Sequence record: MW250785
Reading direction: 5' to 3' (one strand)
DNA from: Escherichia phage UPEC03
DNA: 64,000 bases
The notes beneath the pieces were generated by a model that was given only the letters and a program-made list of their open reading frames with translations, was not told the DNA's origin and made no database searches. A program made the position numbers and the translations under genes. Below, piece by piece: positions 1 to 16,291 of the stretch (positions within the stretch are counted from its first letter, which is position 1; each line of letters begins with the position of its first letter).

Positions 1-1218
1 AAGGATAAAGACGAGAAGAAATTCAGCAAGAAAGTATTGTCTTTGCTGGGTGCAATCAAGGATAATACATCCGGTCTTCTGGCTCGCTTTATCGGTTATT
101 CTCTCGAAGCGCTGGCGAAGTTTGCAAAATGGACTCTGATTATCGGTAGTATCGTATTTGCGATCGACGTACTGAGTAAGGTTGTTCAGAAGTGGTTCCA
201 GGATATTCTTGCAGAGGGTGAAGCCTCGAAAGATTTGTTTGGTTCATACTTCGGGAATATCAAAACCCTTGCTGAGAAAATCAACGAAGGTCTGCAAAAC
301 TTTGATATGAGTAATTTGGGCGAATCGCTGAAAAACTTGTTCCTTGAACCGTTTAAGGTTCTGGGCGATACCATCAAAACCGCAATCACGGAAGGTATCG
401 GTAATCTGATTTACGCTCTGGGTGAATATACCGGATCTGAAACAATTACCAACGCCGGACGCGGAATGAAAGTATCAGCACTGCGCGACAAACAAAAATA
501 CGGTCTTGAAATTGATCCCGATGACCTGATTCTGCTGAAACAGCAGGAGATCCAGGATCAGAATGATAAAGTGGTTGAGGCACGTTCTAAGGTTGTCGAA
601 CAGGTTAAGGCTACCCAGGGCGCATTCTCATATAGTTTCGGACAGCAAACAGACGCACAGAAAGCATTGTCTAAGCAATTGGAACAGATGCGCGATCGTG
701 TGGCTATTGAAGAAAAGATCACCGAAGAGAAGAAGAAAGAACTGAAAGCATTGCAGGAAAACCCCGCACTGTTACAGGCTGAGGTTGATAAAGAGAATAC
801 CGCTAATCGTAAGCGCGTGGACGAAACCAAACAGATCGAAGCCGCGCAAGCGAAAGCGAAACCTAAAGCGGATAATGAATTCGATCAGGGCGATGAAATC
901 CTGAACAAAGACAATCTGACGGGCAACGATAAAAAGGTAATGGAAAAACTCATAGAATCGCTTGAAGAGAAAAACAACTCCAAGAAACTTGACGAAGACG
1001 ATAGCGAACGATTCCGCTCAATGCTTGACCAGTGGCAGAACAAGATCGCCGCAGTACCGGAAAGCAGTGCAAGTATTGACAAGCAACCGGAAGCAGTGAA
1101 AGCCCCTGTTCAGCCTACAACGCCTAACAGCGTTCAGGTCAACAACAAAACAGTAAACAACACGGTTCAGCATTCAGTACAACGAACTGACCGTAAATCA
1201 TTGATTGCATTAGCTTAA
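1..1218 (+). CDS. Baseplate hub / tail-associated protein, T4 gp29-like, 5'-partial (continues upstream of window)
   Basis: Frame is open from nt 1 (listed start at 37 is only a TTG); K/E/Q-rich coiled-coil-like sequence; sits directly upstream of gp48- and gp54-like genes as in T4 order 29-48-54. Confidence 0.5.
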   Translation, partial: KDKDEKKFSKKVLSLLGAIKDNTSGLLARFIGYSLEALAKFAKWTLIIGSIVFAIDVLSKVVQKWFQDILAEGEASKDLFGSYFGNIKTLAEKINEGLQNFDMSNLGESLKNLFLEPFKVLGDTIKTAITEGIGNLIYALGEYTGSETITNAGRGMKVSALRDKQKYGLEIDPDDLILLKQQEIQDQNDKVVEARSKVVEQVKATQGAFSYSFGQQTDAQKALSKQLEQMRDRVAIEEKITEEKKKELKALQENPALLQAEVDKENTANRKRVDETKQIEAAQAKAKPKADNEFDQGDEILNKDNLTGNDKKVMEKLIESLEEKNNSKKLDEDDSERFRSMLDQWQNKIAAVPESSASIDKQPEAVKAPVQPTTPNSVQVNNKTVNNTVQHSVQRTDRKSLIALA

Positions 1219-1229
1219 AGGAAATTTAA

Positions 1230-2315
1230 ATGAAAATTACAGTATTGCAAGACACTGTACAATCATTTGCTGAAATCAAAAATGCTGGCATCCCCTCTGG
1301 GGGTGCTGCAACAACTAAAAACGCGTTGACTCAACCGATCGTAACAGCGGAATTTCCTTCCCAACGTGCAGCAGGTATTGATAACGCTTATAATGCATCA
1401 AGCCTGTATAATAACGGCTTGCTGTTCACAGCATATGATTTCACGGGTGGACTTGCACCAGGCAGTAAAGACAACTACCGCTCATTACGTCAGGCAGCAC
1501 AGAACGCGCAACAGATCCTTAGTGCCAACACTGGGAACGTTCGATACAAACAGGTTTTGAATACCCGTACTATGGGTACACTTAACCCCATTTGTCAAAT
1601 ACTTTTACCGCGAAGCCTGAACGATAACGAAGTGAACTCACACCGTTATCAGGATGCAACCGATAGTATTGTTGCTAAAGGTTTATCCCGTGCGGTATCA
1701 AACGTTATCTGGGGCGCTGTAGAATCCGTTTCTGGTGGTATTCTGGCAGACCGTAGGGAAGCAATCGACATCGGTACGAAAGCAGCGTTTCAAGGCTCTG
1801 ATAAGCGCACAAAGATGTATTACAATACATTCGTTATCGAAAGCCGTTATGACCTGCTGGAACTGATTAAAATCTATTACCTGTTCACGGTGCTGGGTTA
1901 TGGTACTACTTCTGGCGGTACTCCAGCAGAATTAGCCGGACTGGTTAAACAAGCGTATAATTCCAGCGCTTCGAAGGTTGCAAACGTTTTTGCACCATCA
2001 ACAAACCAGACGACAGCAAGCGATTTCAACGGCAGCATCGGGGATCAGATTGTTGACTTCGTATCGAACGTTGAAGTTATTAAATCGCCTCCTGTGTGGT
2101 TTATTCGTGACTTCCAGACAGGTGACAGTTTGCGGTTCCCTCATTCCACGTTCGGGCCAGCAGGTATTACCAGCGTTCGTTTCGGGCGTACAATGGACAA
2201 CATTGTAAATACGTTGAGAGAATCACCGAACACCCCGATCGCAGTTGAAATCGAAATTCAGTTTATGGAACTGATCGATATGCGTCAGGATTCGATTTTT
2301 GATACGCAGTATTAA
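1230..2315 (+). CDS. 48: Baseplate tail tube cap protein (T4 gp48-like)
   Basis: 361 aa (T4 gp48 is of similar size); ATG shortly after previous stop; synteny 29-48-54. Confidence 0.55.
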   Translation: MKITVLQDTVQSFAEIKNAGIPSGGAATTKNALTQPIVTAEFPSQRAAGIDNAYNASSLYNNGLLFTAYDFTGGLAPGSKDNYRSLRQAAQNAQQILSANTGNVRYKQVLNTRTMGTLNPICQILLPRSLNDNEVNSHRYQDATDSIVAKGLSRAVSNVIWGAVESVSGGILADRREAIDIGTKAAFQGSDKRTKMYYNTFVIESRYDLLELIKIYYLFTVLGYGTTSGGTPAELAGLVKQAYNSSASKVANVFAPSTNQTTASDFNGSIGDQIVDFVSNVEVIKSPPVWFIRDFQTGDSLRFPHSTFGPAGITSVRFGRTMDNIVNTLRESPNTPIAVEIEIQFMELIDMRQDSIFDTQY

Positions 2316-2324
2316 GGGGGAACA

Positions 2325-3188
2325 ATGTTCTATAGCGTAGATGAATTTTTGTCAGGAATGGCAAATAGAGACTTTCAGCGAAGCAACCTGTTTAGTGTTG
2401 TATTCGCAACCAGTCCTGCATCACGCATTCTCGACAGCACGATCGGGAGTATCCGCGATACTTTAATAGATGGTACTATGAGTTCCATTAACGCGAATAA
2501 CCCGAACGAGTTCATGAACGCTATTACAGGGGGCGTAAGCAAGCTATTCAGCTATACAGTTGATAAAGCTATTATGTCCCTGAACAAAACAGGTTTCAGT
2601 AAAATCATGGGGGCGTTAAGCCCTCGTTTAATTACTTCCCTGTTTGGTGATAGTGTTTACGGACAGATGCTAACAGAATTCCGTGACAAAATGATGTATA
2701 ATATGGGGTTGAGCATCGTTGGTGTTCAGTTGCCTGGCAAAACGCTGGGTTATGAATACGTGTATAATGGCGGTGTACCCCAGATCCGATTCACCCGACC
2801 GGAGAATGGAGAATTATCACTAACGTTCCGTGTGGATTCAGAAGCGCGTAACCTGAAAGTATTCAACGAATGGTTATCGGCTATTCGCGATGATATTACA
2901 GGCCAGTTCGCATTCATTGATGAAGTATCAAGCGCGATCCAGGTAAACTTACACAATCGCGATGGTGTCCCGCACAGCACGTATGTATTCCAGAAGTGTT
3001 TGCCTGTTAAAGTCAGCAACCCAGAACTGAGTTATGAAAGCAATAACGAAATCTGGACATTCACTGTTGACTTTGCATATAAAACAGGCTGGCTTGTCGA
3101 AGCAGATAAAGAAGGTTGGGACGGATTCAAACAATCACTTATCGAAGGGGCAGCAATTGCCGTTCGTGGTGTGGTTACAGGACAATAA
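2325..3188 (+). CDS. 54: Baseplate tail tube initiator (T4 gp54-like)
   Basis: 287 aa, tightly coupled downstream of gp48-like gene; assignment by synteny and size only. Confidence 0.5.
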   Translation: MFYSVDEFLSGMANRDFQRSNLFSVVFATSPASRILDSTIGSIRDTLIDGTMSSINANNPNEFMNAITGGVSKLFSYTVDKAIMSLNKTGFSKIMGALSPRLITSLFGDSVYGQMLTEFRDKMMYNMGLSIVGVQLPGKTLGYEYVYNGGVPQIRFTRPENGELSLTFRVDSEARNLKVFNEWLSAIRDDITGQFAFIDEVSSAIQVNLHNRDGVPHSTYVFQKCLPVKVSNPELSYESNNEIWTFTVDFAYKTGWLVEADKEGWDGFKQSLIEGAAIAVRGVVTGQ

Positions 3189-3206
3189 GGGGCGAAAGCC
3201 CCTTTT
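3187..3206 (+). terminator. GC-rich hairpin with GAAA loop and short T-run, directly followed by SD GAGG
   Basis: AAGGGGC-GAAA-GCCCCTTTT; the identical ~25-nt element recurs at 61439-61463 upstream of gp13. Confidence 0.4.
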
Positions 3207-3215
3207 GAGGTTAAA

Positions 3216-3959
3216 ATGATTGACATAATCCGCGTAAAACTCCCAGGTGGAGTGAAGCGATTCCCTATGTTTACCGTGCGCGATCAATTGAGTTTCTTAC
3301 TCACAAGCGCGGACATGGAAGGGAAGACGCTCACAGAACAGCAAGAAATGCTGGATGAAATTTTAGATATTCTGTATCCGGGTTATTCCCGCACCGAACA
3401 GGAAAACATTTTCACTAAGGTGTATTGTGTATCGTTCGGTAAGAACGCAATCAAGATCCGAATCAAAGGCAGCAGCGGACAATCAGAAGCATTCATGCAT
3501 GTAACTGATTACGTTTTGCAAAATGAATATGCCCTTGATGATTCGCTTACTCTGGGATTCAAATTCCCGAAACATCGTAACAACAGTGAACAATTATTCC
3601 TTGAATGTATCCAGTATGTCAAGCAGGACGGCGAAAGATACGAATGGAATGCATTAGACGAGGATACAAAGAACGCGATCCTGGATCTGGTGTCTATTGA
3701 AGATATGGAAAATATCGTTAAACTGTTACGCAAGTCCTGTCATGTTACCGTGCGTGATATTGAGTTCAGCGACTTATTGACACTGTACAAAATCCTGTTC
3801 AACAAATCAGAACTGAATGAGTTCTTCAAAACCAACTATTTGTTAAATAAGAATACCGTACAGATTGAACCTATAATGAATGGAAGCCCGATGGAACGTT
3901 CAATTTACGTTGCATTGCTGGCAGAAGACTTGAAACGAAAAGAGAATGCAAATGCGTAA
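3216..3959 (+). CDS. Putative baseplate hub assembly protein (T4 gp51-like by size and position)
   Basis: 247 aa; ATG at 3216 preceded by GAGG; lies between gp54-like and gp25; no motif recognised, synteny and size only. Confidence 0.35.
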   Translation: MIDIIRVKLPGGVKRFPMFTVRDQLSFLLTSADMEGKTLTEQQEMLDEILDILYPGYSRTEQENIFTKVYCVSFGKNAIKIRIKGSSGQSEAFMHVTDYVLQNEYALDDSLTLGFKFPKHRNNSEQLFLECIQYVKQDGERYEWNALDEDTKNAILDLVSIEDMENIVKLLRKSCHVTVRDIEFSDLLTLYKILFNKSELNEFFKTNYLLNKNTVQIEPIMNGSPMERSIYVALLAEDLKRKENANA

Positions 3960-4509
3960 ACATACCCCCCGACATATCCCAAAATATAATGTGACTTATC
4001 GCCCGTTAACCATTGGCGATCTTGATGATACGGATAACTTCATCATTGAAGGTGATGTGTTCAGGCATCAGCGCGATTATGTTTACATTATGGCTCTGTT
4101 CGACAGTATCAACAAAGAGACTGTAGATCTCCAAATCAAATGCCCTGAATGCGGGGAACTGATTAAGTTTGTGCTCAACCGTCATCATATCATGGTGGAT
4201 GAATACGAAGAAAAGCTGTATGGCAATGAGATCAAGATTTCAGTTGAACCACGTCGCACCGGAAAGGAAGAGTTACCCGAACTGATTAAGTTTGTTGTCA
4301 TCGACGGTGAACAAATCTTATGGGATGACTGTAAAGAGTCAGAGAAAGAAGCCGTTCTGGATAGTATCGACTATCCGGTCTTTAAATCAATAAATAGCGC
4401 CCTGGATAAGCCAGCAATCGTTGCAAACATTCCGGTAAGGTGTTCGTGTGGCTACGAGCATATCGTTGCACTGAGAGGCTTAGAGGCGTTTCTAAAGGTG
4501 GTTGGATAA
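3946..4509 (+). CDS. Putative baseplate hub subunit (T4 gp26-like by size and position); Cys-rich
   Basis: 187 aa, overlaps upstream gene by 14 nt and gp25 start region; CPECG...CSCG cysteine pairs; assignment by synteny only. Confidence 0.35.
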   Translation: MQMRKHTPRHIPKYNVTYRPLTIGDLDDTDNFIIEGDVFRHQRDYVYIMALFDSINKETVDLQIKCPECGELIKFVLNRHHIMVDEYEEKLYGNEIKISVEPRRTGKEELPELIKFVVIDGEQILWDDCKESEKEAVLDSIDYPVFKSINSALDKPAIVANIPVRCSCGYEHIVALRGLEAFLKVVG

Positions 4510-4510
4510 A

Positions 4511-4903
4511 ATGGGTGTTAACCTTCGCTTACTGTATAGCGATATCGATCCCAACTTAACAAAAGACTGGAACAATGACGTAACCGCCTCGAAAGGGGCG
4601 GCAGCGGTAAAGAATAGTCTGATCGGTATCGTAACAACACAAAAAGGCACACGGCCTTTCGATAGCAACTTTGGTTGTGAGATCGGGGAACAGATTTTCG
4701 AGAACATGAACCCGCTAACAGCGGAAGCAGTAAGGACTTCGATTGTCTCCGCGATCCGCACATACGAACCCCGTGTTTACAATCTGGATGTTGAAGTGAT
4801 TCCGCAGTATGACGAAAACGCAATCACCGTGACGATTTACTACAGCATCATTGATGAACCGGAAGAAGTAGAAAGAATCAAACTCCAGCTATCATCCTCA
4901 TAA
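4511..4903 (+). CDS. 25: Baseplate wedge subunit gp25 (GPW/gp25 family)
   Basis: 130 aa from ATG at 4511 (SD AGGTGG upstream; the listed 4502 start is TTG); size and sequence character typical of T4 gp25. Confidence 0.75.
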   Translation: MGVNLRLLYSDIDPNLTKDWNNDVTASKGAAAVKNSLIGIVTTQKGTRPFDSNFGCEIGEQIFENMNPLTAEAVRTSIVSAIRTYEPRVYNLDVEVIPQYDENAITVTIYYSIIDEPEEVERIKLQLSSS

Positions 4904-4905
4904 CA

Positions 4906-4930
4906 AAAAGCCCCTTTCGGGGCTTTTCTT
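4906..4930. terminator. Bidirectional intrinsic terminator between convergent gp25 (+) and minus-strand block
   Basis: AAAAGCCCC-TTTC-GGGGCTTTTCTT; A-run before and T-run after the stem. Confidence 0.55.
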
Positions 4931-5426
4931 ATTCCATCACGATCCAGCCCATTAGCTGTTGATATCGCAATTCGAACGGGGTGATGAAAGAGCGGTTATT
5001 GATAACCTTCGTCCCGTTGTAGGACTTAATCACTTCTTCACCACGAAGTACATATTCGTATACTTCGTCCATAGTGTCGTAACGCACTTCTTCGACTTCG
5101 AAGCAGAAGTTGGAATATTCAATCATCCCGATCTTGTTCGCGTAACGACGTTCGATACAACCCTGTTTTTCAATCTGAGTAATCGCAGTATCAATGAACT
5201 GCGCAAGTGCTTGCATGAAATTACCACATTCGACTTCACGGCCCCCGCTTGAGATAGCCAGGTAAACGCGGTTCAATCCATCATTACCGATGTAGCCGAT
5301 GCAATCGCCACCGATATTAACAGCCCACACTTTACCCATTGGCCCCATACCCATTCTGTTCTCACTACGAGAAACACCTTTCAGTAACAGTGCCATGATA
5401 CCGCCGCGAACGTAATTCATTTTCAT
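4929..5426 (-). CDS. Hypothetical protein (165 aa)
   Basis: ORF with ATG start, last gene of the minus-strand block; Gly-rich motifs but no family recognised. Confidence 0.5.
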   Translation of the reverse strand: MKMNYVRGGIMALLLKGVSRSENRMGMGPMGKVWAVNIGGDCIGYIGNDGLNRVYLAISSGGREVECGNFMQALAQFIDTAITQIEKQGCIERRYANKIGMIEYSNFCFEVEEVRYDTMDEVYEYVLRGEEVIKSYNGTKVINNRSFITPFELRYQQLMGWIVME

Positions 5427-5436
5427 GATAAGCCCC

Positions 5437-5667
5437 TTATTTTTTCAGGTTGATTAACCAAGATGGTTGGGTTTCTAAACTAACCGCTTTCCAAGCATAT
5501 GCAACACTATAACCGGAATACGTCTGACATACAACAGCATTTTCATTTAAATATTTCACTTTGTGATTTGCCTCTTGTTCATCCAGGGCAGCACACACGA
5601 TATTCTTTTCATACACCCCGCCGTTTGGCTGGATAATGGTTTCTTCAATCAGATAAACGCTGTTCAT
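5437..5667 (-). CDS. Hypothetical protein (76 aa)
   Basis: ORF coupled (4-nt overlap) to upstream gene. Confidence 0.45.
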   Translation of the reverse strand: MNSVYLIEETIIQPNGGVYEKNIVCAALDEQEANHKVKYLNENAVVCQTYSGYSVAYAWKAVSLETQPSWLINLKK

Positions 5668-5879
5668 GCTAATTCCTTCTCGATTGCTTCGATGATGTGG
5701 AGAACGTAACCGTTCAGTTCTTTTGCTTTATCAGCGGCTTCAACCATACCGTAACGAGGAACTTCTAAAACGTTCGCACCTTCGAGCAGGTTGCTTTCGA
5801 TGTCTACGATTACGTAGCTCTCACCGATTACTGCGCCTTTTCTCCAGTCTTTTACGAACTTCATCATTTTAGCTTTCAT
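5664..5879 (-). CDS. Hypothetical protein (71 aa)
   Basis: Listed ORF starts with GTG inside the upstream hairpin; ATG at 5879 with AAGGA SD is the likely start. Confidence 0.5.
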   Translation of the reverse strand: MKAKMMKFVKDWRKGAVIGESYVIVDIESNLLEGANVLEVPRYGMVEAADKAKELNGYVLHIIEAIEKELA

Positions 5880-5958
5880 GTTCTCGTTCCTTTTGGCTGT
5901 TCCGTTTCGATATGTGTAATATAACAAAGCCCTCACCGAGAGGCAAGGGCTTTTTTGA
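5880..5958 (-). promoter_or_regulatory. Terminator-promoter-leader module (copy 1 of 6)
   Basis: Minus strand reads AAAAAAGCCC-TTGCCT-N17-TATATTA-CACATATCGAAAC: hairpin with embedded -35-like TTGCNN, extended -10-like TGTTATATT, conserved leader. Confidence 0.45.
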
Positions 5959-5959
5959 T

Positions 5960-6250
5960 TTAATGCATAAAAGATTTGACGTACTTCACGATTTCTTCAC
6001 GACACATATCGACCGGAGTATCCTCTGCAATAGCAGCATGACAGAAGATTTCACCATCCAGCCAGAACGATAGCATGTACTGAATATCCCGACCTTCGTT
6101 TTCTTTCTGGTGTTTCTTGATGCGATCAAATGCATCATCCATACTTTCGGTAGCTGTAAGCATTTCAGATTCACCCGCTACAGCAGCCATTTCCCCAGCT
6201 TCATCACTGAATTCGCTTTCCAGTTCTTCCCAGTATACTATCGTTATCAT
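5960..6250 (-). CDS. Hypothetical acidic protein (96 aa)
   Basis: ATG start; E/D-rich. Confidence 0.5.
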   Translation of the reverse strand: MITIVYWEELESEFSDEAGEMAAVAGESEMLTATESMDDAFDRIKKHQKENEGRDIQYMLSFWLDGEIFCHAAIAEDTPVDMCREEIVKYVKSFMH

Positions 6251-6383
6251 GGATTACCCCAAACAGATTTTACATTTACAGAGAGGACATTCCGCCTCTT
6301 TAACGCGCAAGCGCTTTGTTGCTGTTCGCTTCGCTGTGTTGTGATCATACACATGCAAACAGCGATAACAGATCACCAATCGT

Positions 6384-6857
6384 TTAGCCGTCATAACCAC
6401 CACCGCAACGAACATCACCTTCAATGAACAGTTCGCGGTTATCTCTCAGGAGATTGTATTTCTTTTCGAGTTCCGGCCCGAATGCGTCCGCGTCGTCATA
6501 CCAGTCATAGTTATAACTTCCGGTTTCCTCGTCGTATTCCGGTTCGTCGCCGCACTCATTGAAGTGAACGATTTTAACATCATCCAGATTCAGTTCTTTC
6601 AGCTTGTCCCAGATGCGGGTTATTTCGACGCTATTACATCCGAACGCTTCCAGTGTGATTGTACCGTCATCATGTACTTGAGGAACACCCCAGCGCGGAC
6701 GATGATGAATTTCGGTGATCATATCCATCAGCGATTCAACGTTTGACTCACCGTAAATCTTTGCAACTTCCTGTTCTTTACCAGGGCGGACAAGTCCTAT
6801 CCCGATAATGAAACTACTGCTTGAGCTATTGCTCACGAACCCAGAACGGATCTTCAT
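6384..6857 (-). CDS. Hypothetical protein, conserved-N-terminus family (MKIRSGFVSNSSSSSFI...), acidic/aromatic C-terminus
   Basis: N-terminal 17 aa identical to ORF 10292-10804 with only synonymous codon differences; C-terminus D/E/Y/W-rich. Confidence 0.55.
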   Translation of the reverse strand: MKIRSGFVSNSSSSSFIIGIGLVRPGKEQEVAKIYGESNVESLMDMITEIHHRPRWGVPQVHDDGTITLEAFGCNSVEITRIWDKLKELNLDDVKIVHFNECGDEPEYDEETGSYNYDWYDDADAFGPELEKKYNLLRDNRELFIEGDVRCGGGYDG

Positions 6858-7045
6858 CGCCTTGCCTCGTATTTCGCGTTATCTGCGATTTTCTCATGAT
6901 ACAGGTTGTATGACAACACCAGCGGGATACAAGCTACTATAAGCCCGATGATAGCCAGTTGATATTCGCGTTTATCGAACGCCATGAATGTAATCGTAGC
7001 GCCCAGAATAAACACACCTAACGCAATGATGAAGAATAATGTCAT
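6854..7045 (-). CDS. Small membrane protein (two predicted TM helices)
   Basis: 63 aa, two hydrophobic stretches; 4-nt overlaps with both neighbours. Confidence 0.45.
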   Translation of the reverse strand: MTLFFIIALGVFILGATITFMAFDKREYQLAIIGLIVACIPLVLSYNLYHEKIADNAKYEARR

Positions 7046-7668
7046 TTTGGCAGGGTATCCATTTCACGAGATTTTGCTTTCAGGATGTCAATCACAGTAG
7101 TCATCGCCTGTTCTACATCACCATCATAGTGAACCAGGAATGTTTTGTGAAGTCCCATGATCAGACGATTGATGATATAAGCCATTTCTGACGGTAACAG
7201 TTTACCATTCTGGCGATCGTACTTTCCAAACAAGCGGTAGAGTTCTGCGCTGTTGCCTGGCTTCTCAATGCTGAAATTATGCATCCCAGACAGAATACCA
7301 TCCAGATACAGAACAGTTTTGTTATCACTACGCAGGTGTCCGCCGACCTTGTAGTAGTTGCTGAATACATACGGTTTTTCGCGGATATCTTCGATATCGA
7401 AATCACCATGATCTTCGATGTTGCCAACATGGGCGAAGAAATGATGATCTTCCAGTTCGAGAAGGATTGCACCCTTTTTGTATGGGAATCCGACTAAATC
7501 GATCTGCCAGCCATTTTCACCGACAAAGACATCATCGACAACCACGAAATCCGGCAGCATAGGCGCGTATGCGTGGTTCTTTTCGTTGTTTTCACGATAG
7601 GCTTGTGGTTCGGACAGATACAGGATATCGCCTTTTACAACTTCACCCCAGAATACGTTACGTGACAT
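7042..7668 (-). CDS. Hypothetical protein (208 aa)
   Basis: ATG at 7668 preceded by GAGGA; the listed start at 7707 lies within the upstream terminator hairpin. Confidence 0.5.
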   Translation of the reverse strand: MSRNVFWGEVVKGDILYLSEPQAYRENNEKNHAYAPMLPDFVVVDDVFVGENGWQIDLVGFPYKKGAILLELEDHHFFAHVGNIEDHGDFDIEDIREKPYVFSNYYKVGGHLRSDNKTVLYLDGILSGMHNFSIEKPGNSAELYRLFGKYDRQNGKLLPSEMAYIINRLIMGLHKTFLVHYDGDVEQAMTTVIDILKAKSREMDTLPK

Positions 7669-7709
7669 ATTATTTTCCTCAATATGCCCCCTTTCGGGGG
7701 CGGTCATTG

Positions 7710-9956
7710 TTAGATTTTGACTTCTTTTTCTTCCAGGACGATTTCACATTCGAATGATGTGGTTTCCCAGACTTTCCAGAAATCGGATGGAATATTATCT
7801 TCTTTCGGAAGAATATCTTTTGCAGCGATAGAAACTTTGGTTTCTTCGAAGTCCAGATCCGCGAACCATGCATGGGCTACTACAACACCGTACATTACGC
7901 GACTTAAACGGGCATTCAGTTTACGGACTTCCTGAATCGTTGCCTTTGTCTGCTTATCAAGATACTCGACTACCTGATCTTTGTCAAGCGCATCCAGTTC
8001 AGATTTCACCTGATCGTAAGCCCACAGGATAATCAGGTCGCCGTTGTTCAGTTTCTTCTTACCTTCGTCACGTTTCGCGACGGTAGCCGCTACAGCAGGA
8101 AGGGAGGAAACACCCTTGACTTTCACGTTCAGTTCTTTCGACATGTAAACATCAGTCGATTCTGTGCGCTCAACCTTCGGAGAGAACCCGTAATCACGAA
8201 TATCCTGTTCAGACAGCCATTCACCCGCTGCATCACCAAAGCGCTGTTTCAGCCCTTCTGCGTTGCGCAGTCCGATCGCGTTGTCACGGAAGAACTTCAT
8301 AACCTTCTGACGGCCTTTCAGGATTTCCAGACGCACGTTATCAGTCACGAACTCTTTACCGCTTAACCCGCGAGTCATGCCACGGTTAACCAGAGGCAGA
8401 GAGGTAAAGTCTACCAGTACCGACATACGGTCATCACCGATTTTTTCCAGCGGCTTGATAGTCAGGCCAGAAGCGCGAAGGTTTTTCAGTGTCGGAATAT
8501 CAGTTTCCAGCGGCAGAACTTTCACGTTCACGATACCATCTTTAACGATGGTGAAGTTACGCACCTGCTTAGTTTCGATTTTTTCCGGCAGACCGAATTC
8601 TTTCTGTTTGCTTTCTGGGATAGTCACATACCCTTCCAGATCCGTGTTGATGGAAATGTTAGGACGGGAACTGTTACCCACCAGATGTTTAACCGATACT
8701 TTGGTTGTGGTCTGGGTAAATTTCGGTGTCCAGACTTCATGCGCTACCATTTGCGCCGCCAGTGCTTTACGTTCTTCTGGGATTGCAGCGTTTGCGATCT
8801 GTTCGGTCAGTTGATCCAGTGTATCATCTTCTTTCTGTACAGTCTGACGGCCTGTGCGGTTATACGCCCAGTGCTCAGAAGACAGGTCGATCACTGTGTC
8901 AGTTTGTGCCAGCAGTTCGAGCGCATCAACCAGAGTGAACGCGTTTTCGTCTGGAACCATGTTGTAATCAATACCATCAACGAAACGCTGTGATGGATCT
9001 ACAACAGCCTGTGCAATCAGGTCTTTCGCGTTGGAGTAGTCCTGTTTGGTAAAGCAGTTGTCATACGCCTTGATCAGACGGACATCACCCAGCTTTTGAA
9101 GCACTTTCCATGCCAGATCAGGGTTCATTGTGTGCAGTGCATGATAAAGCACGACATACAGAACTTGCTGTTCGCTGGCGATGTTCGGATCGAATCCGTC
9201 AACATCATTAATCGCGTTTTCACCCAGCGCCCAGATGTTTTTGATGTGTTCTGGAACTAGCACAACACCGTTTGCAGCGTTCAGGACATACACGCACCCT
9301 TCGTCCAGGTAGATCGCATGGGTAGCATCAGCAACTTTGACTTCGATACGCGCGGAAGTCTGCGCGGTGATGATTTCGTTAAATGCTGGTTCGTATGCGT
9401 CGAAACCTTCAACGAATTTGTGCAATGCGTTGGTTGCTTCTGCCATTTTTTCCAGCAGAGGACGGTTTACATAATAACCGTATTCCAGGAACGCGATACT
9501 GTTGAAAGTCAGTGGCAGAACCGCACACGCTTTCAGAATATCATCGGTACGCCAGCAGTTATCATAACCATCAGTCAGGAAGATCAGGCTGTTCAGGTTG
9601 CCGTTTTCAGATTGCAGATCGGTAGCGATTTCCGCAGCCAGATTCAACGGCTCAACAAAGCCAGTACAACCCGTAGGTTTCAGGTAACGGTCGATAGCCG
9701 CGCAGATGTTAGACAGGTCAGAGACATTGCTAACCTTCTCACCACGGAACACCGTGCCGTAATCGCCTTTGCTGGAGAAGTACAGGATCGAAACGGTGTC
9801 ATCCTGTTTAACCAGACTCGCCAGATTTGCTTTCAGGTGTTTACGGATCTTAGGCAGTTCGTTGTACATTGAACCGGATACGTCACACACGAAAACGTGG
9901 TTTGTCGGGGTTGGCTTCGATACAGCGTTTTTGAATTCGATATTTGTGATTGACAT
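7710..9956 (-). CDS. von Willebrand factor A (vWA) domain protein, 748 aa (CobT-like?)
   Basis: N-terminal MIDAS-like motif VFVCDVSGSM (DxSxS) and downstream FLTDGYDN; ATG start; followed by GC hairpin at about 7685-7705. Confidence 0.7.
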   Translation of the reverse strand: MSITNIEFKNAVSKPTPTNHVFVCDVSGSMYNELPKIRKHLKANLASLVKQDDTVSILYFSSKGDYGTVFRGEKVSNVSDLSNICAAIDRYLKPTGCTGFVEPLNLAAEIATDLQSENGNLNSLIFLTDGYDNCWRTDDILKACAVLPLTFNSIAFLEYGYYVNRPLLEKMAEATNALHKFVEGFDAYEPAFNEIITAQTSARIEVKVADATHAIYLDEGCVYVLNAANGVVLVPEHIKNIWALGENAINDVDGFDPNIASEQQVLYVVLYHALHTMNPDLAWKVLQKLGDVRLIKAYDNCFTKQDYSNAKDLIAQAVVDPSQRFVDGIDYNMVPDENAFTLVDALELLAQTDTVIDLSSEHWAYNRTGRQTVQKEDDTLDQLTEQIANAAIPEERKALAAQMVAHEVWTPKFTQTTTKVSVKHLVGNSSRPNISINTDLEGYVTIPESKQKEFGLPEKIETKQVRNFTIVKDGIVNVKVLPLETDIPTLKNLRASGLTIKPLEKIGDDRMSVLVDFTSLPLVNRGMTRGLSGKEFVTDNVRLEILKGRQKVMKFFRDNAIGLRNAEGLKQRFGDAAGEWLSEQDIRDYGFSPKVERTESTDVYMSKELNVKVKGVSSLPAVAATVAKRDEGKKKLNNGDLIILWAYDQVKSELDALDKDQVVEYLDKQTKATIQEVRKLNARLSRVMYGVVVAHAWFADLDFEETKVSIAAKDILPKEDNIPSDFWKVWETTSFECEIVLEEKEVKI

Positions 9957-10292
9957 TTAAATTTTCTCGTATTTGAATTTTTCTAAAATTTCGTTAACTT
10001 TATTGCTTACTGCTTCGACTGTACGATCACACCCGAACTTACGCGCCAGGAGTTCAACGTATTCATCCATCGTAGTGAGTTTGGATTCTGCAACGTCAAA
10101 CGCAAGCGCATACATTACTGGATTCAATACTCGAACGATTTGGAGAGTATACTCGTTCAGTTCAAAACGTTCAAGATATTTTCGCAGAGAAAATACATCA
10201 AACGGTGCGGGGCGATCCTGGCTAAAGGGGATCGACTCCCCTAATGCATAGCGAGGCATAACAACACAGACTTCGGTTTTTAACTTATCCAT
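9957..10292 (-). CDS. Hypothetical protein (111 aa)
   Basis: ORF immediately upstream of the vWA gene, adjacent stop/start. Confidence 0.45.
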   Translation of the reverse strand: MDKLKTEVCVVMPRYALGESIPFSQDRPAPFDVFSLRKYLERFELNEYTLQIVRVLNPVMYALAFDVAESKLTTMDEYVELLARKFGCDRTVEAVSNKVNEILEKFKYEKI

Positions 10293-10804
10293 CAGTGATG
10301 ACTCTTTGATGTGTGTTCAAGGTTACGGAAGATGTTTCCATGTTCCAGTTGAGTTCCGATCGGGCCGCATTCATCGGAGTACGTGAATTCATAGATAAAC
10401 ACGCCGTCCTGATTGCCATACTTCGTGTTGTACTCTTCATACAACCACATTTTGATCAGAGCGTCTTTCTCTTCTGTGTCCAGATCGTACCAGTCTCGCC
10501 CGTCATACGCAAGCGCAATTTGAGGGTTTGAACGGTAGCGGGTTTCTGCGCTTTCTTCGGTTTCCCAGTCATAGCGTTTATCGTCGTAGAACGATTCAAA
10601 GCTATTACCCAGATGACCGCCTAAGTCACGGTGAACATGATTGACCACTTCTTCCGCTGTTAACGGAGGATTGTAGTAACCGCAGTTCGGAACGCAATCA
10701 CCCATCATTTCGCGCAGGTTGTCGATATTAGTCGGATCTTTCGGGAACCGGACGATGAAACTACTTGATGAACTGTTGCTCACAAAACCAGAACGGATTT
10801 TCAT
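10292..10804 (-). CDS. Hypothetical protein, conserved-N-terminus family (MKIRSGFVSNSSSSSFI...)
   Basis: Paralog of 6384-6857 in the first 17 aa; divergent acidic/aromatic C-terminus. Confidence 0.55.
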   Translation of the reverse strand: MKIRSGFVSNSSSSSFIVRFPKDPTNIDNLREMMGDCVPNCGYYNPPLTAEEVVNHVHRDLGGHLGNSFESFYDDKRYDWETEESAETRYRSNPQIALAYDGRDWYDLDTEEKDALIKMWLYEEYNTKYGNQDGVFIYEFTYSDECGPIGTQLEHGNIFRNLEHTSKSHH

Positions 10805-11034
10805 TTTACATCCTCAAATTGTAAGTTTTCTTTGGTTGCGTTCGCAATGGCTTTTTCGTTGCTCAGTGTTACTATGCGCAGACGTTCTCCAGTAAAGCCG
10901 TCGCATTCAGTGATACTTACCCAGTCAAAAGGTTTAGCCATTTCAATCGCACGTTCCAGCGATACGGTAGAACCGACCAAATCACTAAATGTATAGTAAT
11001 CTTCGCTTAAACTTTCAACAGTATAAATTTTCAC
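10801..11034 (-). CDS. Hypothetical protein (77 aa)
   Basis: Coupled small ORF (4-nt overlap). Confidence 0.4.
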   Translation of the reverse strand: MKIYTVESLSEDYYTFSDLVGSTVSLERAIEMAKPFDWVSITECDGFTGERLRIVTLSNEKAIANATKENLQFEDVK

Positions 11035-11273
11035 GATACTTTACCTTTTGTTTCAGATTTCAGGACGATGTTACTGTAAGGATCTTTTGCTACCAGTTCC
11101 CACAGGTCGCCAGGATGTTCCCCGCTACGGTAGACGGATGAACGGATGATTTCGTTAAACTTGCTCAGGGCTTCGTCTATGTCGTCATACCCGCATTTGA
11201 GAGGCTTACGGTTGCAACGAATGAAGAACATTTCGTTGGTATTCTCCCAGCGTTCGGCGTTTTTAACCTTCAT
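11031..11273 (-). CDS. Hypothetical protein (80 aa)
   Basis: Coupled small ORF. Confidence 0.4.
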   Translation of the reverse strand: MKVKNAERWENTNEMFFIRCNRKPLKCGYDDIDEALSKFNEIIRSSVYRSGEHPGDLWELVAKDPYSNIVLKSETKGKVS

Positions 11274-11542
11274 ACCGCCTCCATTTTACCAATGACTTCT
11301 TCGTATGTCACAGGGTTAGGTTCATAGCCGTTAGCGCCTATTGTATCGCCTACTCTGTTTCCTACTAAAGAAGCAACCGCAACTTTCTTGCCGTCTTTCC
11401 ACGCAGTGAAATGCAGATTATCCGCAACATACGGGAAGGTTTCGTGATTGTTCACCGCGTCGATGCAGTCCATAACGGTATCAGACGCGCAGATCAGATT
11501 ACCAGGTTCATAATCAACCAAACATTCAACAGTGTAAATCAT
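11270..11542 (-). CDS. Hypothetical protein (90 aa)
   Basis: ATG preceded by GAGGA and an upstream hairpin (11553-11575). Confidence 0.45.
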   Translation of the reverse strand: MIYTVECLVDYEPGNLICASDTVMDCIDAVNNHETFPYVADNLHFTAWKDGKKVAVASLVGNRVGDTIGANGYEPNPVTYEEVIGKMEAV

Positions 11543-11584
11543 AATAATTTCCTCACGAAAAAGCCCCTTTCGGGGCTTGATTAA

Positions 11585-11863
11585 TCAGTGTCCGAACACA
11601 CCACGAATAGACTCTGCGAACGCGTACAGTTCAGGGTTTTTCGCTTTCACTGTTTCGATTTGTTCCAGGATGTAATCTGGTTTGTATTTCGCACCGAACC
11701 AGCAGTAAGAGAAAGAACGATCCCACATGAACACGTTGTAGTATTCACCGTTACGCACTTCAACCATCACGTAACCTGGATTAGAACCCAGCGGGTAATC
11801 TTTCAGTAGATTAAATTTCGCACCAGCGCCAGTACATCCGTTAAACAGGTCATTAAAAGTCAT
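11585..11863 (-). CDS. Hypothetical protein (92 aa)
   Basis: ORF with ATG start. Confidence 0.45.
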   Translation of the reverse strand: MTFNDLFNGCTGAGAKFNLLKDYPLGSNPGYVMVEVRNGEYYNVFMWDRSFSYCWFGAKYKPDYILEQIETVKAKNPELYAFAESIRGVFGH

Positions 11864-11916
11864 GGTATGTTCCTTTTCAGTTTCGTTTCGGTAAAGCTAA
11901 TGTATCACTATCCTGG

Positions 11917-12453
11917 TCAGTATGCAATGTTTAATTTTGCAAATTTACCAAAATGTTTTATCGCTTCCCGATCGTATGCTTTTGCAGCCTCGTATTCGTC
12001 ACGATAGGAACCGATATGTTTAACCTTGCCGTCAATCTTTATCTGTGCAATGTAACGTATTCCAGTAGGTTGATCACGTACACATACACCCTTGAATCGA
12101 CTGGTTGCTACTCTTCGTTTAGTCCGGTTCTGACAGTTTCGGGATTGATCCGCTTCACGCAAGTTATCAATCCCGTCGCCAGCCTCAACACCATTTTTAT
12201 GATCAATCACATCAGGCAGTTTTCCGGTTGCAACGTAGTAGATGATTCGATGACGTAGATATCCTTTGCTTTTGAAATAAACGCGGGTATATCCTCCTTT
12301 AATCTTCGAACCTACTTCCTTTCCGATCAAGTCAGAACGTTTGTGTGACGTTCGTATAATTGTCCCCGTTTGTATATCAACAGAAACAGTTTTAAGGAAT
12401 TCGTCAATTCCTTTCTGTTCTTCTTCGATTGTTCTTAGTCCGTTGTGTGACAT
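11917..12453 (-). CDS. HNH endonuclease with C-terminal AP2-like DNA-binding domain (homing-endonuclease-like)
   Basis: HNH-type motif ...VIDHKNGVEAGDGIDNLREA...; AP2-like FKGVCVRDQPTGIRYIAQIKIDGKVKHIGSYRDEYEAAKAYD; paralog at 26069-26593; overlaps Dcm stop by 19 nt. Confidence 0.75.
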   Translation of the reverse strand: MSHNGLRTIEEEQKGIDEFLKTVSVDIQTGTIIRTSHKRSDLIGKEVGSKIKGGYTRVYFKSKGYLRHRIIYYVATGKLPDVIDHKNGVEAGDGIDNLREADQSRNCQNRTKRRVATSRFKGVCVRDQPTGIRYIAQIKIDGKVKHIGSYRDEYEAAKAYDREAIKHFGKFAKLNIAY

Positions 12454-13358
12454 AACACCTTCTTGATTTGTTTTGCTATAGCCTCGATTACTGGTATTGA
12501 AACAGAATTACCTGCTTGTTTATACGCTTGCATCTTGCTTTTGTTGATAATAAACGAATCTGGGAAACCCTGCAAACGAAAACACTCACGGGGAGTAAGT
12601 CTTCGGGGGTTCTTTCCTTCCTGCAATACCAGACATTGAACACCATCTTTATAGTAATTTGCAGTGATAGTCCCAGTGTGCGTAGAATCGCTTGTGACGG
12701 CCTGATAACCGAAACCCTTACCGTTTGCCTTATTTCGTTCCTTACGCTCTCTAAAGCCCTTCCATGCGTTATCTGACAGGGTGAACGAATCATCAGCATC
12801 TTCGAGGATGTCGCCTACGCGTGTAGGGGTACGCGGGGGAACCGGAAACGAAAAGAATACATCATCCAGGAAGCAGACAATAAACACGCGTTCCCGTCTT
12901 TGGGGTAGTCCGAAATCCTTTGTGTTCAGGCGTTGATAGAATACGTTATATCCTTCGGCCTCCAGAAGCCCGTAAATCGTTTTAAACGTCTTCCCCTTGT
13001 CATGGGTTAGCAGTTCAGGCACGTTCTCAAAGAACAACACACGGGGCTTTTTAGCGCGTATAATGCGGAGGATTTCGAAGAACACCGTACCGCGTACATC
13101 ATCAAAGCCCAGTTTCAATCCGGCTTTACTGAACGCCTGACACGGGAACCCCGCGAGCAGGATATCATGATCAGGTACTTTGTTTTCATCAATGGCGAAT
13201 AGATCACCCTGTAGGTTATCATCGCCCCAGTTTTCGATATATGTTTGCTGTGCGAACTTGTCGATTTCAGACGTTAAAAGGCATTCGACACCGCCGAACG
13301 CCTTATCAAATCCTAATCGAACCCCGCCCACACCAGCGCAGAGGTCAATTATTTTCAT
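12435..13358 (-). CDS. DNA (cytosine-5)-methyltransferase, Dcm-type
   Basis: Motif I DLCAGVGG, motif IV GFPCQAFS, ENV motif FFENVPEL; 307 aa. Confidence 0.85.
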   Translation of the reverse strand: MKIIDLCAGVGGVRLGFDKAFGGVECLLTSEIDKFAQQTYIENWGDDNLQGDLFAIDENKVPDHDILLAGFPCQAFSKAGLKLGFDDVRGTVFFEILRIIRAKKPRVLFFENVPELLTHDKGKTFKTIYGLLEAEGYNVFYQRLNTKDFGLPQRRERVFIVCFLDDVFFSFPVPPRTPTRVGDILEDADDSFTLSDNAWKGFRERKERNKANGKGFGYQAVTSDSTHTGTITANYYKDGVQCLVLQEGKNPRRLTPRECFRLQGFPDSFIINKSKMQAYKQAGNSVSIPVIEAIAKQIKKVLCHTTD

Positions 13359-13624
13359 ACGTCAAAATCAATCTCGTCGATTTTGTATGAGTTTTCGTCA
13401 ATGTCCGCCCATAGGGTTACATTAACGTGTTTGCTATCTTCGTACAACTGGCGACCATCAATCCCGCCCGTGTAATTGCTTTCGGTACGTTCAGTAACTT
13501 CCAGTCGGAGGCTATCGCGCATGATCTGAACAACAGCCTGTTCCAGTGTAACTGCGTCTGGGTTTTTGGTATCGCCCAGTACAACATCTTTAACGTTCAA
13601 AATAATATCAGTCATTAGTGCCAC
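13355..13624 (-). CDS. Hypothetical protein (89 aa)
   Basis: Coupled ORF between nucleotidyltransferase and Dcm genes. Confidence 0.4.
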   Translation of the reverse strand: MALMTDIILNVKDVVLGDTKNPDAVTLEQAVVQIMRDSLRLEVTERTESNYTGGIDGRQLYEDSKHVNVTLWADIDENSYKIDEIDFDV

Positions 13625-13857
13625 TCCGTTTTAATACCATGTCGGTATGCGTCAATCCCCAGCGGGGTAATCAGCAACCATGCTTTCGAATTATCGTGAT
13701 AGCCCGTTACCCTTCGAGCGTAACCTTTTTGAATCAGGGCATCACGCCCTGATTTGCTGGGTACGTCATCGAAATCTAAGTCTAGCACCTTAGTTGCATA
13801 TCCGTAAAGTTTATACAGAACATCAATTTCAGCGCCGGACAATTTAGGATACATCAT
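13615..13857 (-). CDS. Hypothetical protein (80 aa)
   Basis: Coupled ORF, overlaps both neighbours by a few nt. Confidence 0.4.
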   Translation of the reverse strand: MMYPKLSGAEIDVLYKLYGYATKVLDLDFDDVPSKSGRDALIQKGYARRVTGYHDNSKAWLLITPLGIDAYRHGIKTEWH

Positions 13858-14855
13858 TTGTAATACCCCACAACATGATCGCGGTATACGCGTTCGATGA
13901 AATCGTTCCAGAATTCGCGGTCAACTTCTTTCGGATATGTTGAAATCGCTGCAAGCCGTTCGACTTCGCCCATGACTTCTTCCAGCTTTTCCTGTACGGT
14001 TGCGAACGGTACGCCGCCAGCTTTAACCAGTTTCAGGAATGCGCTATCAGGCAGAGGATAAACGATATCACCATCTTTGTAAATCTGGATCAACTGCATA
14101 CCACCGCGCAACGCGTGACTTAAAGCCTTCCAGTCGATGCCGTTGTTGGCTTCTGCTTGTCGTGCGCGTTCTCCGTATTCATCCCAGAGTTTGTACACTG
14201 ACTTACGCATTTCATCGGCTTTGATCGTGAACTGGAATTTACGCCCCAGCACTTCATAGAAGTCCTGACAACCAGATTTCATTGTCGTGTCGGTAACGAA
14301 TCGGCAGAACTCGTTTGTAGGGAAACGATTCTTGATGTCAGACACTTTCACTTCACGCGTATAGCGTTTCATATCTGGTGTGAATTCCTGAATACCACCG
14401 ATCGTTTCGGTTTCTTTCAGTACATCGACAACTTCGCGCAGTGCAGCCAGTCGGGAACCTTTCACACCATATTTTGCGGCTTGCTTGCGAACATAACCGA
14501 ACAGGCCAGTTAGTTCAGTGGTGTAAAAACGCCAGCGGTTAGCGCGGATATACTGCCAGATTTCAGAGTTAGCGATCAGCTTGTCATCCGAAGCGTGAAG
14601 CATATCGAGCGCTACGGTATCACCATCACACGCAAGGCTGATAAACTTAGTCAGACTATACAACTGACGATCAACGTCGTCTACGGTGTTTTTAGAGCTT
14701 TTATCGCCCGTGCTGGTGTCGATAGACTTCTTCGCAGTGCCTAACAGGATTTCGCGAGGATGAGGGAGATAGATCCCTTTGTAGTCTTTATCGCTTGTTG
14801 GTGTTTCCAGTCCGTAAAGATGGGATCCAAAAATCATTTCAGTAATCATTTTCAT
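13854..14855 (-). CDS. Pol-beta superfamily nucleotidyltransferase-domain protein, function unknown
   Basis: N-terminal GSHLYGLETPTSDKDYKGIY matches the G[GS]x9-13Dx[DE] NTase signature; ATG at 14855 (listed 14870 start is TTG) overlaps HNH stop as TAATG. Confidence 0.6.
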   Translation of the reverse strand: MKMITEMIFGSHLYGLETPTSDKDYKGIYLPHPREILLGTAKKSIDTSTGDKSSKNTVDDVDRQLYSLTKFISLACDGDTVALDMLHASDDKLIANSEIWQYIRANRWRFYTTELTGLFGYVRKQAAKYGVKGSRLAALREVVDVLKETETIGGIQEFTPDMKRYTREVKVSDIKNRFPTNEFCRFVTDTTMKSGCQDFYEVLGRKFQFTIKADEMRKSVYKLWDEYGERARQAEANNGIDWKALSHALRGGMQLIQIYKDGDIVYPLPDSAFLKLVKAGGVPFATVQEKLEEVMGEVERLAAISTYPKEVDREFWNDFIERVYRDHVVGYYK

Positions 14856-15613
14856 TATACAAATCTCCAATAAAACCCTTTATGAGTTTTTCTTTTACCG
14901 TTACAGCATGAACTTACATGCCCTTTGTTATACCCCATTTCAACGGCTTCCACAATACCACCATTTAAAATAGTTTCTCTTTCTGTTTTGATACATTTCA
15001 TAATCAAAGGTTTTATCAATTCCGTCTTCTTTTGTGAAATATTAGCTAATGCAATTACATTTCTGATATCAGATTCACTCATTAAATCAGAAATCTTCTT
15101 TCTTAACCATACATAGCCTTGACTTTTGGCAAGTTTGCCGGAGCAACATTCATGAATATGACTAGGGTTAAATCCACGCAATTTCATTTCTTGCCGACCG
15201 CCTAATATGATAATCTCGTCTCCTGTTTCAAGGTTGAATCCGACAACTGGAATTATTTGCCGTTCCGACATTTTCTTTCTCGCTTCTTTCGTGAATATTG
15301 TAAGAGATTTTAATTTTCTCGCGTCGCTCATTTGCGAAGATGTCGTTTTGTATTTCTTAGTATTATGAGACATACGGAAAAAAGCATATCTCATTTTATC
15401 ACCAGCATACTTAGCAAGTAGATGATGAGCAAGATAATGCTCTTTATATGTTAAATATACTAAATTTTCGGGTTCATCAGTACCACCTAATGACTTAGCA
15501 ACGATATGGTGTATATCATAACCGCGCTTTCTATACTTTTTCGAGTAACCTTTAGGTATATCTCTTCTTTTTGCCAATGTAATTAGTTGGTCGTAAATAC
15601 GCTTATAGTTCAT
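14855..15613 (-). CDS. HNH homing endonuclease-like protein
   Basis: GYDIHHIVAKSLGGTDEPENLVYLTYKEHYLAHH HNH motif; ATG at 15613 with AAAGGAGAG SD (listed start is GTG). Confidence 0.75.
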   Translation of the reverse strand: MNYKRIYDQLITLAKRRDIPKGYSKKYRKRGYDIHHIVAKSLGGTDEPENLVYLTYKEHYLAHHLLAKYAGDKMRYAFFRMSHNTKKYKTTSSQMSDARKLKSLTIFTKEARKKMSERQIIPVVGFNLETGDEIIILGGRQEMKLRGFNPSHIHECCSGKLAKSQGYVWLRKKISDLMSESDIRNVIALANISQKKTELIKPLIMKCIKTERETILNGGIVEAVEMGYNKGHVSSCCNGKRKTHKGFYWRFV

Positions 15614-15743
15614 ACACTCTCCTTTAGGCGTATTTATCACTTAAAATCCGAACACGGTTTCCATAATCATTTTCATCAGAATTCAACCTTTAATGTTTTT
15701 GCGATCCCGCGCAATTCCGCGGTAGTAATAACAGGGATCATAA

Positions 15744-16016
15744 TCATTTCCTCACAGTTTCAAATTCTTCGTCAGATTTCCAGTACACGTTAAAGTTACG
15801 GCAATCGTGGTCGGAAGTCAACGTATATTTTTCTTTTGTTTTCTCGTCGGTGATCACCATCGTTTCATTCTCGATCGAGTCCACACCATAGACGAATACT
15901 TTATCACCGCGTTTATTCAGGAACGCTTCACCTGTTTCAACCAACTGCCAGCAGTTGACGGGTAAACCACCCGCACAGATCGGACGGTTTACGAGGCAGT
16001 AAGGACGTTTAATCAT
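15744..16016 (-). CDS. Hypothetical protein (90 aa)
   Basis: ORF with ATG start. Confidence 0.4.
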   Translation of the reverse strand: MIKRPYCLVNRPICAGGLPVNCWQLVETGEAFLNKRGDKVFVYGVDSIENETMVITDEKTKEKYTLTSDHDCRNFNVYWKSDEEFETVRK

Positions 16017-16207
16017 TTAAATTCTTCCATTGCATAGGAAGTAAGATCTTTGAAATACCTTGCGGTGTTGCCTTCTGGGTTGTTTGTAATCTCCATCAGG
16101 ATAACAGCACCATCAACTCCTGCTTTCTTAGCCATGAATGAAATGGCTTCGGTAGCAATAATCGTTGCTTTCATAACATCAGCTTTAGAAACGTTGATCG
16201 TATTCAT
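16013..16207 (-). CDS. Hypothetical protein (64 aa)
   Basis: First gene downstream of module copy 2. Confidence 0.4.
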   Translation of the reverse strand: MNTINVSKADVMKATIIATEAISFMAKKAGVDGAVILMEITNNPEGNTARYFKDLTSYAMEEFK

Positions 16208-16285
16208 TTTTCTTCCTTTTCATTATTCATGCGGTATGTGTATATAATACAAAAGCCCTCACGCGAACGCAAGGGCTTTTTTAAT
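16208..16285 (-). promoter_or_regulatory. Terminator-promoter-leader module (copy 2 of 6)
   Basis: Minus strand AAAAAAGCCC-TTGCGT-N17-TATTAT after NatV stop; hairpin 16251-16282. Confidence 0.45.
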
Positions 16286-16291
16286 CTTTTA

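Follow-up and report, generated by a model that had tools for sequence, protein, structure and literature searches.

Must the baseplate hub genes of a T4-related phage follow the gene order of T4? The question is raised by positions 1-4903 of a 64,000-nucleotide (nt) stretch of Escherichia phage UPEC03 (sequence record MW250785; the whole stretch is called the window here), which carries genes for the baseplate hub and for tail-tube initiation. The original prediction, made from the letters alone, proposed that these genes run 29-48-54-51-26-25 on one strand, an order different from that of T4. It named genes 51 and 26 from size and position only and spoke of a rearranged baseplate module. Here we find that the order is as proposed. 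The genes are very probably true orthologues of T4 genes 29, 48, 54, 51, 26 and 25, and the T4 order and the window order are best understood as lineage-fixed alternatives.

Content, order and identity of the hub genes

The + strand of positions 1-4903 contains six co-oriented genes, 29 (3' part)-48-54-51-26-25, almost without spacers. These genes and the two hairpins associated with them are as follows:

1..1218, + strand: 3' part of gene 29 (baseplate hub / tail-length tape measure); phrog_7361 3e-222, phrog_1283 3e-10
1230..2315, + strand: gene 48 (baseplate tail-tube cap); PF11091 1e-62
2325..3188, + strand: gene 54 (baseplate-tail tube initiator); PF06841 6e-7, phrog_45 8e-51
3189..3206, + strand: intercistronic hairpin GGGGC-GAAA-GCCCC, then UUUU; centroid fold -13 kcal/mol, z -3.1
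3216..3959, + strand: gene 51 (baseplate hub assembly catalyst); PF12322 5.4e-32, phrog_150 5e-53
3952..4509, + strand: gene 26 (baseplate hub subunit / assembly chaperone); PF12322 7.9e-34
4511..4903, + strand: gene 25 (baseplate wedge / sheath-initiator protein); PF04965 1.8e-16
4905..4927, both strands: bidirectional intrinsic terminator, AAAAAGCCCC-UUUC-GGGGCUUUU, between the convergent gene 25 and open reading frame (ORF) 4929-5426 (- strand)

In T4 (NC_000866, 115.4-122.7 kb), the corresponding genes are arranged as <-uvsY <-25 <-26 / 51-> 27-> 28-> 29-> 48-> 54-> / <-alt <-30. In contrast, Cronobacter phage leB, RB43, Roth22 (Slopekvirus) and vB_Mm5, an unclassified Morganella phage, share the order 30-> ... 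/ <-27 / 28-> 29-> 48-> 54-> 51-> 26-> 25-> / <-early genes, referred to below as RB43-type. The T4-type order is absent from the window, where genes 51, 26 and 25 trail gene 54 on the same strand. Instead, the window genes follow the order of 28-29-48-54-51-26-25 on one strand, with a contiguous 54/51 junction. The two types share the same gene set, including both PF12322 paralogues, and the runs 29-48-54 and 26-25. They differ in that T4 has its divergent junction at 26/51, with gene 51 heading the rightward operon, whereas the RB43-type has its divergent junction at 27/28 and places 51-26-25 behind gene 54. Gene 27 itself falls beyond the window. Every relative examined, the 98%-identical leB among them, has it in inverted orientation, pointing away from gene 28, and has the ligase block upstream.

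When proteins from all of the window were mapped onto T4 58-128 kb, this difference could be placed in its genomic context. The map was built on the ORFs of the window, as transfer of leB coordinates fails beyond ~5 kb because of indels. Window positions 18.5-63 kb are colinear and co-oriented with T4 58.8-95.3 kb (rI.-1, rI, tk ... 57B, 1, 3, 2, 4 / 53, 5, 6 ... 14), and the hub genes, in permuted order, correspond to T4 115.4-122.5 kb. Relative to the tk...3-2-4/53-5-6... block, the hub cluster is found on the opposite side from T4: it lies to the right of gene 24 in T4 and to the left of the rI/tk block in the window phage. Beyond gene 25, T4 has uvsY and oriF; a search of the 64-kb window revealed no homologue of uvsY, the neighbour of gene 25 in T4-type phages. 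The two orders are at least three reversals apart when the ligase flank and the 26-25 pair are kept in place, a distance equivalent to one inversion plus one block transposition.

The ORF order and the synteny map thus bear out the claim that 29-48-54-51-26-25 lie on one strand in an order other than that of T4, and the comparison with T4 and other T4-like phages shows that this order is the one found in RB43, leB, Roth22 and vB_Mm5. Two parts of the original prediction need qualification. The T4 order it gave, with 25-26-51 upstream of 27-54, is right as a map order but omits that 25 and 26 lie on the opposite strand. The term rearranged holds relative to T4, as the synteny with T4 and the relatives shows; the two types are sister clades (see below), and either could be the changed one.

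The six genes were assigned individually. The open frame 1-1218 encodes the C-terminal 405 amino acids (aa) of gp29, being colinear with the 580-aa gp29 homologue of leB; its blastp match to T4 gp29 is weak (7e-6). The gp48 protein aligns with T4 gp48 over its full length (blastp 5e-48, 30% identity) and gp54 with T4 gp54 (1.6e-46, 35% identity), giving the tube-initiation pair of a PF11091 protein followed by a gp54 orthologue with the gp19 fold. The gp25 protein shares 56% identity with T4 gp25 (blastp 6e-55), matches the T4 gp25 structure PDB 5iv5_T at 1.6e-46 and belongs to the gp25 / GPW family (PF04965). For gene 26 we take ATG 3952 as the start, which has the better Shine-Dalgarno spacing and is the start annotated in RB43 and leB. 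There is an 8-nt overlap between genes 51 and 26 and a 1-nt gap between 26 and 25, and a Shine-Dalgarno sequence, AAGGTGG, precedes gene 25 by 9 nt. Scanning the window for Rfam families and tRNAs gave no matches. Jointly with the rest of the explanation, we regard it as very probable that the phage is T4-related and Pseudotevenvirus-like (RB43 group) and that positions 1-4903 are the distal two-thirds of its baseplate-hub / tail-tube-initiation cluster.

The ORFs spanning 3216-4509, checked for unrelatedness to gp51 and gp26, proved to be their orthologues. ORF 3216-3959 matches T4 gp51 at 3.7e-29 by blastp, compared with 0.002 for T4 gp26, and carries, beside the PF12322 domain, a gp51-specific C-terminal extension (residues 144-245) that matches phrog_634 ('baseplate hub assembly catalyst') at 1.7e-11. 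Conversely, ORF 3952-4509 matches T4 gp26 at 4.3e-9 and T4 gp51 at 0.002, and its cysteine pairs (CPEC...CSC) align with the T4 gp26 cysteines. Each of the two proteins is the reciprocal best match of its T4 namesake, and in the family tree gp51 from the two phage groups falls in a single clade at 100% neighbour-joining (NJ) bootstrap. The calls made from size and position were therefore correct by Pfam, PHROG, blastp against T4 and the family tree. That the two ORFs are mere positional look-alikes, a reading to which their low identity to T4 gp51 and gp26 (25-27%) might seem to lend weight, is refuted by the PF12322 matches (5e-32 and 8e-34), the reciprocal best BLAST matches and the placement in the gp51 and gp26 clades, and we consider it extremely improbable.

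T4 gp51 and T4 gp26 both match PF12322, and profile-profile comparison with hhalign gives a probability of 99.7%; on these sequence grounds, gp51 and gp26 are paralogous to each other. Given the monophyly of the gp51 clade at 100% bootstrap, the gp51/gp26 duplication is older than the split between T4-type and RB43-type phages. A PDB sequence search with gp51 and gp26 found no relatives. In T4, the only phage for which this is known, gp51 is needed for hub assembly and is not in the virion (PMC3004832). In our alignments, RB43-type gp51 proteins are without the CxxC...CC cysteines that every T4-type gp51 carries, the two cysteine pairs of gp26 are kept in both clades, and RB43-type gp26 is without an N-terminal segment of ~25 residues.

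Distribution of the two orders among T4-like phages

Over this region, phages of Enterobacter, Klebsiella, Cronobacter and Citrobacter that belong to the genus Pseudotevenvirus (RB43 group) are 98.1-98.5% identical to the window phage; Enterobacter phage Nando, leB and Margaery are at 98%. Using a 1-kb probe spanning the 54/51 junction, we obtained a one-piece alignment in ~175 phage records, including RB16, KP15, phiEap-3, Margaery and IME-CF2. The number of records encoding a gp25 at least 80% identical to that of the window was also ~175, out of 1880 with a gp25 homologue; in 16 further records the gp25 is 60-80% identical. Roughly 9% of the T4-like genomes sequenced that carry gp25 have the RB43-type arrangement. 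We confirmed the T4-type order in T4, Serratia X20, E. coli RZ, one Acinetobacter phage, RB49 and 44RR.

NJ trees of gp48 and gp54, with or without gp25 (two or three hub proteins only), resolved the RB43-type and T4-type phages as reciprocally monophyletic sister clades, each with 100% bootstrap. As the two orders map onto these two clades, gene order is a clade character rather than a strain peculiarity or an artefact. That the order was produced by faulty assembly, or by a recent rearrangement in one strain, is close to impossible: ~175 genomes sequenced independently, from three lineages, contain the junction within a single alignment piece, which refutes this reading, and we found no point in its favour.

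RB43 and RB16 (Pseudotevenvirus) are close counterparts of the window in organization. In RB43 (NC_007023; genes 27c, 28, 29, 48, 54, 51, 26, 25), order and strands are identical to those of the window. RB43 also shares the hairpin that follows gene 54, the bidirectional terminator behind gene 25 and the convergent ORF beyond it. The differences are at the sequence level only, such as a GUAA hairpin loop in RB43 and GAAA in the window; the junction DNA is ~83% identical to that of RB16. Gene 29 is given as two ORFs in the RB43 record (L006, 5895-7626), is a single 580-codon ORF in leB (L001, 14476-16218) and is open throughout its window part; the split in RB43 may reflect a frameshift or a sequencing error.

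The KP15 group (Slopekvirus) and vB_Mm5 share the order <-27 / 28 29 48 54 51 26 25 at ~75% DNA identity and form one clade with the window phage (100% bootstrap). The flanks of vB_Mm5 differ from those of leB. In vB_Mm5, cd-pseT-rnlA-denA lie downstream of gene 25 on the - strand, comparable to their place beyond gene 54 in T4, whereas in leB they lie upstream of the ligase gene. This phage may be an informative intermediate for the large-scale RB43-type rearrangements.

The arrangement is already known. The RB43 GenBank record names genes 27 (complement), 28, 48, 54, 51, 26 and 25 in this order, and the RB43 genome was described as 'substantially rearranged' (Nolan 2006). A 'unique genome topology' was reported for RB16 and RB43 ('RB43 type topology') and also for KP15, together with the statement that core-gene modules function despite differences in orientation and neighbourhood (Petrov et al. 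2010, PMC2993671). Our literature search for wording of this local hub-gene permutation found none, only general statements and supplementary tables. The order is therefore part of the documented RB43-type topology, explicit in annotations and supplements and public since 2005-2006.

Transcription of the cluster

How might the cluster be expressed when genes 51, 26 and 25 trail gene 54? From the sequence features described in this section, we propose a single late transcription unit of seven genes, 28 to 25. Its promoter, a bidirectional late one in the 27/28 gap ~2.4 kb to the left of the window, would also fire gene 27 leftwards. The right arm would then consist of 28-29-48-54-51-26-25 and the left arm of gene 27 alone. 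The positions of this promoter and of genes 27 and 28, all beyond the window, are taken from 98%-identical relatives. Transcription would read through the GNRA-tetraloop hairpin after gene 54 and end at the bidirectional terminator after gene 25, and translation of 51 and 26 (8-nt overlap) and of 26 and 25 (1-nt gap) may be coupled. The products would act like their T4 orthologues: hub assembly would involve gp29, gp51 and gp26, tube initiation gp48 and gp54, and wedge/sheath initiation gp25.

The promoter candidates at the divergent junctions are consistent with this scheme. The 27/28 gap of leB, RB43 and Roth22 contains a conserved palindrome, TATTTACTAAATAGTAAATA, and that of vB_Mm5 a T4-like palindrome, TATTTATAAATA, which is the same overlapping divergent late-promoter pair as that found at 26/51 in T4, X20 and the Acinetobacter phage. 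The hub cluster has one divergent junction, and TATTTATAAATA or a variant of it is found there in L016 (vB_Mm5; 4190-4210), L002 (8451-8462) and L001 (leB; 13850-13875). With palindromes at 26/51 in the T4-type and at 27/28 in the RB43-type, both architectures appear to be built around one bidirectional late promoter, and what differs is the set of genes on each arm. In agreement, the supplement of Nolan 2006 predicts just one late promoter for the RB43 cluster, in the 27/28 gap at 60263, and none before 51, 26 or 25.

Within the window, neither the T4 late promoter consensus TATAAATA nor CTAAATA occurs on the + strand of positions 1-5000. Only three copies of TATAAATA, a chance level, were found in the whole window. 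Genes 53, 6 and 7 are preceded by CTAAATA at a distance of 27-43 nt, as is gene 4 on the other strand, which suggests that the window phage uses an Aeh1-like CTAAATA late-promoter core instead of T4's TATAAATA. All eight CTAAATA heptamers fall in the late-gene region (39845-57223) and none in the early block at 5-39 kb; their total equals the chance expectation, and their placement alone is suggestive.

The hairpin between genes 54 and 51 is the element on which the proposed unit turns. The 54/51 spacer is 27 nt long; the gene 51 Shine-Dalgarno sequence, GAGG (3207-3210), follows straight after the four U of the hairpin, with 9 nt between the hairpin and the start codon of gene 51. RB43 and Roth22 retain the stem; the loop is a stable tetraloop in each case, GAAA in the window and GUAA and UACG in these relatives. 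Genes 54 and 51 of vB_Mm5 are 1 nt apart, with no hairpin between them. T4 also has a hairpin immediately after gene 54.

The element is repeated elsewhere in the window. An identical 26-mer, ATAAGGGGCGAAAGCCCCTTTTGAGG, comprising the stop codon, the GNRA-tetraloop hairpin, the four U and the Shine-Dalgarno sequence, is present at 54/51 (3185-3210) and at wac/13 (61438-61463), and a third copy of its 18-mer core is found at 39470-39487 (- strand), before ORF 38831-39454. In T4, hairpins of different sequence occupy the equivalent positions, after gene 54 and between wac and 13. The idea that the repeated cassette served as a recombination breakpoint is not supported, given that vB_Mm5 has the same gene order without the hairpin and that T4 has positionally equivalent hairpins.

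By contrast with the 54/51 element, the hairpin at 4905-4927 is taken as the end of the unit. It folds at -14.1 kcal/mol on the + strand and -16.8 kcal/mol on the - strand (z -4.5 and -5.2), and a bidirectional RB43 terminator, '25-><-RB43ORF110c', is given in the supplement of Nolan 2006. A simple sigma-70 / terminator scan showed no enrichment, and its 5-T rule missed both real hairpins. A terminator hairpin family, AAAGCCCCTTTCGGGGC, is found at 4907-4926, 11560-11579 and 28326-28345. The loop of the gene 25 terminator is TTTC in the window and RB43 and GAAA in leB, a flipped loop on an unchanged stem.

Whether 51-26-25 belong to the same unit depends on how the 54/51 hairpin is read. Several points weigh against a single unit. 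The hairpin was called a terminator by TransTerm (RB43 '54-->51', at 64595-64608, in the supplement of Nolan 2006) and by the KP15 and Margaery annotators, and, if it were efficient as such, 51-26-25 would need a promoter of their own. Octamers containing TAAATA precede gene 26 by ~110 nt and gene 25 by ~122 nt; these could be weak internal late promoters, although they fall in conserved codons. The alternative that 51-26-25 form a separate transcription unit, behind an efficient terminator and with unrecognized internal promoters, draws on the stable hairpin with its U4 tract and its annotation as a terminator, on the conserved distances of the TAAATA-containing motifs from genes 26 and 25, and on a perfect TATAAATA 93 nt before gene 26 in vB_Mm5. 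It has to contend, however, with the lack of a promoter-like motif within 1 kb upstream of gene 51, where the 9 nt between hairpin and start leave no room for one, and with a tract of merely four U before GAGG. The identical 26-mer also lies inside the wac-13 late operon, vB_Mm5 does without the hairpin, and Nolan 2006 predicts no late promoter at this site. We consider a separate unit unlikely. On the sequence evidence of the missing promoter, the wac-13 copy and vB_Mm5, the 54/51 hairpin is probably a leaky or stabilizing intercistronic element rather than an operon end, and genes 28 to 25 likely form a single late operon.

Beyond gene 25, a block of minus-strand ORFs (4929-18500; 13.6 kb) is without a T4 counterpart in the regions compared. 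It includes, on the - strand, a 748-aa protein (7710-9956) with an N-terminal vWA domain (PF13768/PF00092, ~1e-6), annotated in relatives as hypothetical or as 'minor tail protein'.

Polarity of the change and implications

Which of the two orders came first? The ingroup phylogeny was indecisive for polarizing the change, the two orders corresponding to two sister clades. In distant T4-like phages (KVP40-like Vibrio D527, Aeromonas AS-zj/phiWae14, Sinorhizobium phiM7 and cyanophages), a gp54-like gene is followed directly by a PF12322 gene on the same strand. These phages have a single PF12322 gene and no unified hub cluster; gene 25 adjoins 6, gene 48 adjoins 53, and 54-26 come after 4-2. The separate locations of 25 (next to 6) and 48 (next to 53) indicate that the unified hub cluster is a derived feature of the group formed by T4-type and RB43-type phages.

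One possibility is that the RB43-type 54->51->26 order keeps the ancestral linkage. The T4 order would then be derived: in the ancestor of T-evens, RB49, 44RR and Acinetobacter phages, a segment would have been inverted around the palindromic bidirectional late promoter and one block would have moved. Tandem duplication gives adjacent co-oriented copies, as in 51->26 here, whereas the T4 copies are divergent; the monophyly of the gp51 clade (100%) dates the duplication before the split; and a gp54-like gene followed directly by the single PF12322 gene on the same strand is found in Vibrio D527, Aeromonas AS-zj, Sinorhizobium phiM7 and Prochlorococcus P-HM2. Ingroup parsimony, neutral between sister clades, does not oppose this polarity. 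Conversely, six sampled T4-type genera stand against three RB43-type lineages, the T4 hairpin right after gene 54 could mean that 54 was the ancestral end of the operon, the adjacency of 54 and a PF12322 gene is absent in Vibrio K476 and Stenotrophomonas Mendera, and the tree is an NJ tree on two hub proteins only. We therefore hold this polarity, together with the inversion and block move that it implies, as a tentative proposal, somewhat short of an even chance.

For the description of 'rearrangements' in Straboviridae, these findings mean that T4 is not to be assumed as the ancestral reference. The 54/51 junction provides a clean synapomorphy of the clade formed by Pseudotevenvirus, Slopekvirus and vB_Mm5. 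More broadly, and as already pointed out by Petrov et al. 2010, conserved T4 morphogenetic genes tolerate varied orders and orientations, provided that each arm retains a late promoter.

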